This document shows positions 9,449 through 11,668 of a stretch of 25,947 nucleotides of DNA, piece by piece. Numbering within the stretch: the first letter of the stretch is position 1; each line of letters starts with the position of its first letter. The DNA is from a virus, in UHGV virus genome UHGV-0145877; one strand, written 5' to 3'. The notes beneath the pieces are model-generated. The model did not search any database. It was not told where the DNA came from and worked only from the letters and a program-made list of their open reading frames with translations. The translations under genes and the position numbers were made by a program.

Positions 9449-11436
9449 TAACCCACCCTCACCTGATTACTTCGCATGACCTGAGCATTTGCAGACTGTT
9501 GCCGACGTGCAACCTCATTACCGACAGCGTGCGGATCTCCGCCACCGTAAATGTGGTAAGTATTTTGCTGGTTAACCTCTGTCATTTTGCCACTAATTCC
9601 CGCCACGGCAGCCTTATTAATCAGCTCTCGAGAATAGATATTTCTTCCATTTTCATGCTGGATAATGCTGCTCATCAATGCTGACATGGTTTGCGGATCG
9701 CTCATATTCAGGGCAGCCCGGGGATCCACTCCCAGTCGTTGCGATACAGCCCTGATATACGCAGTTGTGTTGTTATTATCAGACGCAGGTGCCCAGGTAG
9801 AGATAATTTTCTCCACACTGTTTATTCCCCGTCCGGCGTACAGCATTAACTGACGAGCAAGAGCCCGTAATCCATCAAAAGCAGTTTCAAATCTGGCAAA
9901 TCGCCCGCCCGGGCGTTCAAGAGAAGCCCCTGCCTGACCAGCAAAATTAAGGTTTCCCGGATTGTTATTCCGTTCTCCTCGTTTCGTAGCCTGTGCATAT
10001 TGTTCCTGCTCATCATCACCAAACCAGCCGCGTACCGTCCGGCCCACACTGCGGGGATCGAATCCCCAGTGCTCTTTAATCCAGTCGGCAGTACTGTTAG
10101 CGCTGTCTGTAACCATCGGCATCGCTGACGGATTTTCGCTGCCCTGATTAAGTATCTGTTTGCCGATGCTGACGGCATCAGCCCAGCGGCCATCTTTGAT
10201 AGCGTTGAGCAGGTCGGCGATCATGTTCAGCATTTTGCTGAATTCGCCCATCTGGTCGATGAAGTTGCTGAAATCCCACTTCAGGGACCATGATTTGGGG
10301 TCAATATTGAGCAGTTTCGCCAGCGCTTTCACCAGTTCATTAACAGACCCTTTCAGGTCACGAACCATCTTCAGCGCGGCATCGACCTCCGGCTTCCACT
10401 TGCCCCAGTCAATCAGGCTGTCGCCGCCTTCCTTCCAGGTCTGATAGTCCTCCCACAGAAGGGCAATCCCCGCCGCCAGCGCGGTAATGAGGCCAATCGG
10501 CGACATCCAGAACGTACTGTTCAGAATGCGCAGCGCAATCGTCAGCGCGCCAAACAGCGAGATGAGCTCCCGCGTTTGCTTATCCAGCGATTGCCACCAG
10601 GTGATAAGGCTGGATGTTCCCTCAATTAGCCTGAAGAACAGCCGCCCGATGATGTCTCCGAGCGCCAGAATGCCTTTTATGGCTTTCGTCAGGGTCTGCT
10701 CGATGCGCGGGAAGTTATCGAGGATGTGGCGGCGCAGTGTGTCCAGCGAACCCGCCAGACCACCAGCAAGATTAGAGCCGATTTTGTCACGGGCCATGCC
10801 TGCCATCGCGCCGAACTCGCGCAGGGAGGTCATGAATTTGTTGGAGCTTCTGGCCGCCTCGTCAGCATTGAAGCCGATAGCTTTCGCCATTGCGCTGTAC
10901 TGCCCGGAGAAATCACCCACACCCCGGCGCATCGCCATGAGGGTATTTTCGTCAATGCCCAGCATCTGCGCATACTGGTTAGCCCGGTAATACGGCATGC
11001 TGCTGAGCTTCTGTCCGACACCCGTAAAAATAGCGGCCATGTCGCGCATGTTGCCGCTGGCGTCACGGGTCTGTACGCCCAGGCGATTCAGAAAGCCTTC
11101 TGCACCGGGATTGTTACGAATAAACCGGGAGAGGCTTTCCAGAGAAGATCGCGCAGCGTCCACGCTGCCGCCAACCTGCGAAACCGCATAGCCAATAGAC
11201 TGAATCCCCTGAACCGTCGCGCCGGTGCGCTGTGACGCCCAGTAGAGATTATCCAGACCGGAGGCGATCTTGGCCGTGAAGGCCACCACGGACAGCGCAG
11301 CTCCTTCAACAGCCAGCCCCATTTTGATGACATTTGCAGTTGTACCGGCGAGGACAGAACCGAATTTTTTCGCGCCTGCATCATCCACACTGAAGCCAAG
11401 CGAGACAAGGAAATCTTTAATAGTTTCAGCGTTCAT
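9448..11436 (-). CDS. Tail tape measure protein
   Basis: Long Ala/Gly-rich helical protein downstream of the chaperone gene. Probable start is the ATG at 11436 (MNAETIKDF...) with a GGAGAGAGG Shine-Dalgarno; the ORF-track start at 11457 is a TTG. Confidence 0.7.
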   Translation of the reverse strand: MNAETIKDFLVSLGFSVDDAGAKKFGSVLAGTTANVIKMGLAVEGAALSVVAFTAKIASGLDNLYWASQRTGATVQGIQSIGYAVSQVGGSVDAARSSLESLSRFIRNNPGAEGFLNRLGVQTRDASGNMRDMAAIFTGVGQKLSSMPYYRANQYAQMLGIDENTLMAMRRGVGDFSGQYSAMAKAIGFNADEAARSSNKFMTSLREFGAMAGMARDKIGSNLAGGLAGSLDTLRRHILDNFPRIEQTLTKAIKGILALGDIIGRLFFRLIEGTSSLITWWQSLDKQTRELISLFGALTIALRILNSTFWMSPIGLITALAAGIALLWEDYQTWKEGGDSLIDWGKWKPEVDAALKMVRDLKGSVNELVKALAKLLNIDPKSWSLKWDFSNFIDQMGEFSKMLNMIADLLNAIKDGRWADAVSIGKQILNQGSENPSAMPMVTDSANSTADWIKEHWGFDPRSVGRTVRGWFGDDEQEQYAQATKRGERNNNPGNLNFAGQAGASLERPGGRFARFETAFDGLRALARQLMLYAGRGINSVEKIISTWAPASDNNNTTAYIRAVSQRLGVDPRAALNMSDPQTMSALMSSIIQHENGRNIYSRELINKAAVAGISGKMTEVNQQNTYHIYGGGDPHAVGNEVARRQQSANAQVMRSNQVRVG

Positions 11437-11668
11437 TATCCTCTCTCCATTTCTCAATGCGCCGCTGGTTATCCGCTTTTACCGCCAGATGGTCATTCAA
11501 GAGAGCAATGTCATACAAATCGACAGAGCCATCTTTAAGTGCTGTATAAGGAATTAACCCGGCGTCAACCGGATTGAGAAGGTAGGACAGCCCGTCCGGC
11601 AGGCTGTTAAACGTCAGCCCTGTTGCAGGCTCTGCGTCGTGCTGGTAAGGGGTGTAGGCAAAAAATTT
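11426..11668 (-). other. Programmed -1 frameshift site and extension ORF of the tail assembly chaperone (GT-like / E+E'-like fusion)
   Basis: Minus-strand 0-frame reads GGA AAT TTT TTG, giving overlapping slippery heptamers A_AAT_TTT and T_TTT_TTG at 11659-11668. The -1 frame is open for 78 codons from the slip site to a TGA at 11426-11428 and fills the otherwise ORF-free 156-bp gap before the tape-measure start. Confidence 0.6.

Follow-up and report, generated by a model that had tools for sequence, protein, structure and literature searches.

The viral genome UHGV-0145877 (25,947 nucleotides, here called the window) carries a contractile-tail gene module in which the tail assembly chaperone gene is followed by a second open reading frame (ORF) in the -1 frame. 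The sheath, tube, chaperone and tape measure genes are all on the minus strand. The chaperone ORF (12066-11614) encodes a short form of 150 amino acids (TAC-N) and ends with TGA at 11616-11614. Close to its 3' end is a slippery run, G GGA AAT TTT TTG (11671-11659), and from this run the -1 frame continues for 78 codons and a TGA (11662-11426), into the beginning of the tape measure gene (11436-9448, 662 amino acids from the ATG at 11436). Very probably, ribosomes undergo a programmed -1 frameshift here, in the tail chaperone gene of a myovirus prophage that is SEN34-like (Brunovirus-type) and resides in E. coli O127:H6 E2348/69, and the -1 extension would be the C-terminal part of a fusion protein (TAC-NC). 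Reading frame, selection, slip site, the lack of a start codon and synteny all support this interpretation; the frameshift itself had been proposed in an earlier note from the letters of the window.

The chromosome of E. coli O127:H6 E2348/69 (NC_011601.1, about 2.598 Mb) matches the region at 99.9% identity, and the prophage to which the tail module belongs has relatives in Salmonella phage SEN34 (genus Brunovirus), Yersinia phage YP3, and Escherichia phages such as vB_EcoM-606R2. The 0-frame product of the chaperone gene matches the Pfam family Phage_TAC_15 (PF21822; E 3.1e-31, 109 bits against a gathering cut-off of 22) and PHROG 1688 'tail assembly chaperone' (E 5e-65). In RefSeq it is WP_000393944.1, 'phage tail assembly chaperone'.

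In the 0-frame the run is read as GGA (11670-11668), AAT (11667-11665), TTT (11664-11662) and TTG (11661-11659). It holds three overlapping in-phase X_XXY_YYZ heptamers, and the chaperone gene has no others. These are G_GGA_AAT, A_AAT_TTT (11668-11662, with the AAU of Asn134 in the P site and the UUU of Phe135 in the A site) and T_TTT_TTG (11665-11659, with the UUU of Phe135 in the P site and the UUG of Leu136 in the A site). The frame of the extension is offset from that of the chaperone by +2, that is, by -1. From 11662 it reads FAYTPYQHDAEPATGLTFNSLPDGLSY...IEKWREDNER and stops at TGA 11428-11426, starting 8 nt downstream of where the tape measure ATG (11436-11434) starts. The first 16 codons of the extension overlap the 0-frame tail (LPTPLTSTTQSLQQG, 11662-11614), and its 3' end contains both the tape measure start and the Shine-Dalgarno sequence GGAGAGAGGA ahead of the ATG. 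Because the -1 frame is open only from 11725, after a TGA at 11728-11726, the shift must fall between 11725 and 11614, and within these limits the only in-phase heptamers are the three of the slippery run. The predicted fusion has 213 amino acids.

The earlier note was right about the A3T6 run with its overlapping heptamers and about the 78 open codons that end just past the tape measure start. Its estimate of a fusion of about 210 amino acids is now given precisely by the computed 213. The gap of 156 bp that the frameshift was said to account for is indeed filled by -1 coding sequence, but its length depends on the tape measure start, which varies by record. It is 177 nt with the RefSeq ATG at 11436 (662 amino acids, good Shine-Dalgarno), and 156 nt only with the TTG at 11457 that is used for SEN34 and YP3 (669 amino acids).

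The combination of slippery run and long -1 frame is more than chance. As a background, 26 minus-strand ORFs from the ORF list (6675 codons) were taken as genes, most of them unchecked against annotation. They contain 21 in-phase heptamers. A long open -1 frame (77-79 codons) follows only the three described here, and after the others it spans 26 codons at most. In these genes an open -1 run has a median length of 8 codons, and 78 codons are attained at 3.1% of positions.

The extension belongs to known protein families. Residues 38-76 (11551-11435) match the Pfam family DUF6889 (PF21829; E 1.2e-20, 73.4 bits against a gathering cut-off of 23.9) and residues 26-78 match PHROG 4364 (E 2e-23). 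DUF6889 is presumed to be a helical C-terminal module, the equivalent of the T domain of lambda by analogy. An AlphaFold2 model of the fusion, made with the natively fused database protein P0001 (see below) and an alignment of 50 rows, is poor overall, with a mean predicted local distance difference test score (pLDDT) of 50 and a predicted template modelling score of 0.29. Confidence is good only for residues 160-213, which form three helices (pLDDT 81-85) after a linker of low confidence (residues 134-155). A phmmer search of the fusion against the PDB sequences gave no match to a solved structure at E up to 1.

For comparison, 149 related loci were assembled, comprising 62 bacterial contigs (one genome per species), 80 viral contigs and 7 annotated records. 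By tblastn, 146 of the 149 have the extension in the -1 frame relative to the chaperone, at chaperone identities down to 45%, and the alignments nearly always begin at residue 1 of the extension. In 114 related loci its stop is placed 8 nt after the first base of the tape measure ATG. Stops in the -1 frame of close relatives, which had been named beforehand as the finding that would refute a frameshift, are thus not the pattern; the frame is open and homologous. Over the part downstream of the chaperone stop, the median pairwise ratio of nonsynonymous to synonymous substitution (dN/dS) is 0.22 in the -1 frame, compared with 1.40 and 1.62 in the other two frames. Entropy in the -1 frame is highest at position 3, and this holds within the 16-codon overlap too, where the most variable nucleotide is position 3 of the -1 frame and hence position 2 of the 0-frame, so it is the -1 frame and not the 0-frame tail that is maintained by selection. 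Past Phe135, the 0-frame tail is variable both in its residues and in its length (12-17 amino acids). The extension is conserved from its first residue, with the motifs FARTPxQRD and LPDG, invariant residues F1, P5, P22 and G24, and nearly invariant R3, L18 and L21. These comparisons show that the extension is a real protein-coding sequence under purifying selection in the -1 frame only.

The exceptions to the -1 arrangement are loci cut off at contig ends (L084 and L101), degraded prophages with clear indels or stops, and a T7 variant in which the frames are joined directly. Indels inside the extension are found in L040 and L126, and a point stop in L053, an Arsenophonus metagenome-assembled genome. 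The T7 variant (L007:1885-1960, from Logan SRR23924998) yields the gene call P0001, an in-frame fusion of 213 amino acids with both Pfam domains, and is the only natively fused homologue among the database proteins. P0074, P0137 and P0139, considered as further natural fusions, turned out to be chimeric mis-calls. The T5 variants P0019 and P0054 were considered as an alternative mode of recoding and rejected. P0054, the one that was checked (L152:1590-1650, GCA_030370565.1), is a 1-nt deletion in the run that places the extension in the +1 frame, in a prophage where the sheath and tape measure gene calls look truncated. Length variants of this kind (T7 or T5) in public assemblies may be real mutants, sequencing errors or reads derived from cDNA. 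Two loci labelled as Bacteroidota, L019 (CACSKA010000001.1, 'Chryseobacterium sp. 18061') and L162 (Elizabethkingia phage EKP1), have an enterobacterial-type chaperone locus that is 57-74% identical to the window and carries the identical GGA AAT TTT TTG run, which suggests mislabelled hosts, contamination or very recent transfer.

Conservation of the slippery run itself, which the earlier note wished to see in related phages, is borne out and is accompanied by synonymous constraint. The sequence GGGAAATTTTTTG is identical in 60 of 75 distinct 90-nt variants of the related loci, and the remaining variants keep T6 or T7 with changes in the preceding codons (for example GGT AGT TTT TTT, GGC GGT TTT TTG and GGT GAT TTT TTG). 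T_TTT_TTG is kept in enterobacterial variants that have no A_AAT, such as the last two. At the slip site Phe135 is TTT in 119 of 119 cases (49% elsewhere in the gene), the Asn codons at position 134 are AAT in 113 of 113 (40% elsewhere) and Gly133 is GGA in 112 of 119 (20% elsewhere). Since these codons precede the shift, the -1 protein cannot account for the constraint, and the likely target of selection is the nucleotide motif A_AAT_TTT itself.

The -1 frame is likewise open at the Leu-Gly-x-Phe position in each of ten additional phage homologues, with identity as low as 30-40% for five of these, and in the phages listed here it encodes the same ...LPxGEDWLLRPV... extension. The nucleotides at the homologous position differ. 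Burkholderia phages Magia and BgManors32 have C_CCT_TTT followed by ATC or ATT, Acinetobacter phage AbTJ has A_AAT_TTT ATT, Ralstonia phage PY059 has G_GGT_TTT_TTC and Providencia phage PSTCR3 has T7. Edwardsiella phage ZHS and Burkholderia phage E192a have a bare T_TTT, and Bordetella phage IFTN9 has G_GGA_AAT ACT_TTC, with T_TTC in place of T_TTT. The element common to the family is the T_TTT on the Phe135 codon (11665-11662) and not the whole A3T6 run, and this implies re-pairing of tRNA-Phe on UUUU.

The proposed mechanism is as follows. Most ribosomes would end at TGA 11616-11614 and produce the short form, while a minority would slip back by one nucleotide on the U-rich run GGG AAA UUU UUU G. 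At the core of the event, tRNA-Phe would re-pair from the UUU of Phe135 (11664-11662) to the overlapping UUU at 11665-11663. This could occur by tandem slippage on A_AAU_UUU with tRNA-Asn in the P site, giving ...GNFFAYTPY..., or at the next codon, on U_UUU_UUG, where tRNA-Phe would occupy the P site, giving ...GNFLAYTPY...; either product would have 213 amino acids. The predicted junction peptides of the fusion are ...SLGNFFAYTPYQ... or ...SLGNFLAYTPYQ..., where a junction ...VVADSLGNFFAYTPYQHDAEPATG... would indicate slippage while UUU occupies the A site, or slippage in the P site only, and ...GNFLAYTPYQ... a tandem slip on U_UUU_UUG. After the slip, 77-78 codons would be read in the -1 frame to TGA 11428-11426. 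The fusion would then consist of the chaperone N-domain, a flexible linker of roughly 25 residues and the small helical DUF6889 module. By analogy with lambda gpG and gpGT, the part common to both forms would coat the tape measure protein, with recruitment of the tube protein falling to the extension.

Work on E. coli bears on the question of which codon slips. Heptamers of the type H_HH.U_UU.Y, including A_AAU_UUU and C_CCU_UUU, are among the most efficient in a systematic survey, in which U_UU.U is a shift-prone tetramer and U_UU.U_UU.G is efficient mainly in eukaryotic systems (PMC4066793). For this reason A_AAT_TTT (11668-11662) is favoured as the main shift site, with T_TTT_TTG (11665-11659) as an overlapping second chance.

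Several observations weigh against a programmed ribosomal frameshift or limit what can be claimed for it. T_TTT_TTG, read as U_UUU_UUG, is outside the E. coli high-efficiency class. Stimulated -1 programmed frameshifting of the dnaX, IS911 or IS3 type is defined by a hairpin or pseudoknot 5-9 nt downstream and/or a Shine-Dalgarno-like sequence 10-14 nt upstream, and neither was found at this slip site. In a single-sequence fold of 11658-11560 the downstream RNA is no more stable than its shuffles (z = -0.28), and the minimum-free-energy fold has its first hairpin only 21 nt past the heptamer. Across 28 diverse relatives, RNAalifold gave two invariant pairs and no conserved helix. Upstream, no convincingly placed Shine-Dalgarno-like stimulator was seen; GGGTGG (11690-11685) is 16-19 nt upstream within conserved Arg-Val-Val codons and is hence uninformative. 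With no stimulator the efficiency would depend on the slippery run alone, and the shift is probably of low efficiency, in the per cent range. In addition, the AlphaFold2 model of the chaperone N-domain is poor, and the roles given to the two domains are taken over from lambda, to which no sequence homology is detectable. The fusion protein, here and in close relatives, is a prediction from sequence, and sequence alone does not separate ribosomal from transcriptional slippage on the T6 run.

One candidate stimulator was rejected. This is an 8-bp hairpin on the minus strand (11607-11587), ACAGCCUG-CCGGA-CGGGCUGU, which is present in close relatives only and begins 52 nt past the heptamer. It is located inside the coding sequence of the extension (NSLPDGLS). 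In SEN34 and YP3 the corresponding stretch (AACAGCCTGCCTGACGGGCTGTC) is still able to pair, and the hairpin is absent from the consensus fold of the 28 relatives.

Public annotation offers another explanation for the extension. RefSeq, through the Prokaryotic Genome Annotation Pipeline, annotates it as a gene of its own in hundreds of E. coli genomes; in E2348/69 this is WP_071819661.1, a coding sequence of 54 amino acids (11590-11426) with a CTG start (codon 11590-11588). A free DUF6889 protein of 30-54 amino acids could accordingly be translated from CTG 11590 or TTG 11518 with no fusion, and some relatives do carry an ATG just ahead of DUF6889 (for example MRPVDAG... in P0146). We hold this to be very unlikely. 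The -1 ORF of the window has no ATG or GTG anywhere, and its only start-like TTG codons (11518 and 11500) have no Shine-Dalgarno sequence and cut into the conserved Pfam domain. At the position of CTG 11590 most relatives encode Glu. The 24 residues upstream of the CTG, which include LTLxSLPDG between the chaperone stop and any possible start, are conserved and selected in the -1 frame, yet no start could reach them, and the synonymous constraint at the slip site would be left without an explanation. The DUF6889 proteins in the databases have mutually inconsistent starts (43-78 amino acids), and we judge these entries and the 54 amino acid RefSeq coding sequence to be gene-caller artefacts of an unannotated frameshift. 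The extension is a separate 54 amino acid gene in all three E. coli assemblies inspected (the CTG start was read in E2348/69 only), and a separate feature lies under the match in 29 of the 30 records listed, from 315 matching genomes. Assemblies differ in calling it 'DUF6889 family protein' or 'NTP pyrophosphohydrolase', and the second name, which also appears in Klebsiella prophage records, is without support and misleading. The GenBank records of SEN34, YP3 and the vB_EcoM phages (vB_EcoM-606R2) leave the region unannotated, as would be expected if the open -1 frame were an untranslated relic or a chance ORF in an intergenic gap, and about 3% of positions in the window genes do have a -1 frame open for at least 78 codons. 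Nonetheless, a dN/dS of 0.22 in the -1 frame only, the Pfam and PHROG matches, and a frame that is open in 146 of 149 loci across Enterobacterales and beyond effectively refute this explanation, which keeps next to no probability.

The fusion could also be made from a slipped message. RNA polymerase would occasionally add one U on the T6 run, and the resulting U7 mRNA would be translated in the standard way into the same fusion of 213 amino acids. The homopolymer (T6 or T7) is the most conserved element in close relatives, the genomic T7 variant demonstrates that one extra U suffices for an in-frame fusion, and no RNA structure that would stimulate ribosomal frameshifting was found. Genes of E. 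coli avoid U7 and A7 runs, in part on account of slippage (PMC4066793). However, productive transcriptional slippage in bacteria has been described for runs of about 9 A or T (PMC5009743), a length that the T6 run falls short of. Distant relatives with T4 only (C_CCT_TTT ATC, A_AAT_TTT ATT and GAT TTT ATG) keep the -1 arrangement, which fits tRNA re-pairing and not polymerase slippage. That GGA and AAT, ahead of the T run, are constrained likewise fits an X_XXY_YYZ heptamer and not a homopolymer, and a note in the phage P2 record on an identical site reads '-1 translational frameshift'. Christie et al. in 2002 reportedly assigned that P2 site to translational frameshifting. We therefore infer that it is the ribosome and not RNA polymerase that slips, and consider transcriptional slippage improbable.

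Within the programmed ribosomal frameshift that we prefer, a more particular proposal can be made, which is speculative and for now doubtful. The frame change may require no more than one tRNA-Phe that slips on an invariant U_UUU, independently of any RNA stimulator or fixed heptamer, while the P-site context (A_AAU, C_CCU, G_GGU, U_UUU or none) would tune the ratio of short to long form in each lineage; part of the long form might come from polymerase slippage or from heritable T5, T6 and T7 variants. If so, the family would be a natural series for the tuning of frameshifting independent of structure, and both DUF6889 and the 'NTP pyrophosphohydrolase' entries would need to be redefined as a trans-frame domain.

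Frameshifts in tail chaperone genes are textbook knowledge and conserved across long-tailed phages, and the present case adds nothing new in principle. Its practical value is in annotation, where the frameshift is missing or wrong in public records and RefSeq could be corrected. Pfam DUF6889 can now be described as the frameshift-encoded C-terminal module of Phage_TAC_15 chaperones. A family that varies the heptamer around an invariant U_UUU, with no apparent RNA structure, also offers a comparative set for the effects of context on low-level -1 frameshifting.

The neighbouring genes complete the module. The tail sheath gene (13666-12521) matches Pfam DUF3383 (E 4.5e-100), and its SEN34 homologue is annotated as tail sheath. 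The tail tube gene (12510-12070) matches the Pfam family KPP10_Orf10 / DUF3277 (E 4e-61). The tape measure gene has a weak match to Pfam PhageMin_Tail. RefSeq names its homologues 'lytic transglycosylase', 'lytic transglycosylase catalytic' or 'hypothetical protein', which suggests that a C-terminal muralytic domain is fused to the tape measure, and in E. coli ET650 the gene is flagged as a frameshifted pseudogene. In the head region, two minus-strand ORFs of the mechanical ORF list (19242-18469 and 20560-19094) overlap by about 150 nt, probably through the choice of start codon.

The locus was compared with the known chaperone frameshifts by the definition of the G/GT type given by Xu, Hendrix & Duda 2004. 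Two overlapping ORFs are present between tube (12510-12070) and tape measure (from 11436), namely the chaperone (12066-11614) and the -1 ORF that runs to 11426. The second of these occupies the -1 frame, overlaps the first at its 3' end and lacks an independent initiation site. The overlap contains an in-phase slippery sequence (11671-11659), and site, frame and open ORF are conserved in diverged relatives (146 of 149 loci and the ten phage homologues). The earlier note had likened the locus to lambda G/GT and P2 E/E+E'. The likeness holds for function and organisation, and it does not extend to detectable sequence homology.

In lambda, G and GT are made at a ratio of about 30:1, and the G part binds the tape measure while the T part binds the tube subunit (Levin et al. 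1993 and Xu et al. 2004, 2013 and 2014, reviewed in PMC5009743). Lambda differs in being a siphovirus and in slipping on G_GGA_AAG with tRNA-Lys, whereas the G_GGA_AAT of the window ends in U and is not of the efficient class. No Pfam or sequence relationship was found between lambda G/GT and the window proteins.

P2 provides an experimental precedent. Like the window, it has a contractile tail and the gene order sheath, tube, chaperone, (-1 extension), tape measure (FI-FII-E/E+E'-T in P2). Its record (NC_001895) gives E at 19430-19705, a joined coding sequence for E+E' and a frameshift site annotated at 19685, where the sequence is GTG GTC GGT TTT TTG TCG, that is, T_TTT_TTG. In both phages this heptamer is in the same phase, 5-15 codons before the 0-frame stop. 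In both, the extension has no start codon of its own, ends in a Pfam module of 37-40 residues, and has a stop that overlaps the tape measure start (a TAA 6 nt inside T for P2, a TGA 8 nt inside the tape measure gene for the window). The proteins differ, since E (91 amino acids, compared with 150 here) is Phage_TAC_7 and E' is Phage_P2_GpE, whereas the window has Phage_TAC_15 and DUF6889. The window site also differs in its additional overlapping A_AAT_TTT and G_GGA_AAT. The window proteins do not match Phage_TAC_7 or Phage_P2_GpE even at E up to 10, and homology of the extension to E' was rejected after hhalign of the extension alignment against E' gave a probability of 0.6%.

For the chaperone genes of Vandenendeviridae (Pakpunavirus) and Andersonviridae myoviruses, a paper of 2025 proposes conserved -1 programmed frameshifting on a GTTTTT motif, and by a comparative argument like the one used here recasts a downstream 'hypothetical protein' as the C-terminal part of TAC-NC (PMC12846349). 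These phages share with the window the KPP10_Orf10 tube family and a T-rich slip motif at the 3' end of TAC-N. They differ in being lytic phages of Pseudomonas and enterobacteria. None was among the tblastn matches; their membership of Phage_TAC_15 or DUF6889 was not specifically searched.

Two members of the same protein family are Klebsiella phage Mulock (MN098327, CPT_Mulock_014/015) and Burkholderia phage Magia (MT701587), in which curators have annotated a joined coding sequence at the same place as 'tape measure chaperone frameshift product'. The Mulock product is 59% identical to the predicted fusion and its gene has the identical GGA AAT TTT TTG run, whereas Magia has C_CCT_TTT in place of the A3T6 run. 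Both phages differ from the window in host, and both annotations are predictions. A publication on the present locus was not found, and the SEN34 paper and the Mulock announcement are silent on a frameshift. The frameshift is already annotated in two homologues, and the locus is of the classical tail-chaperone kind.

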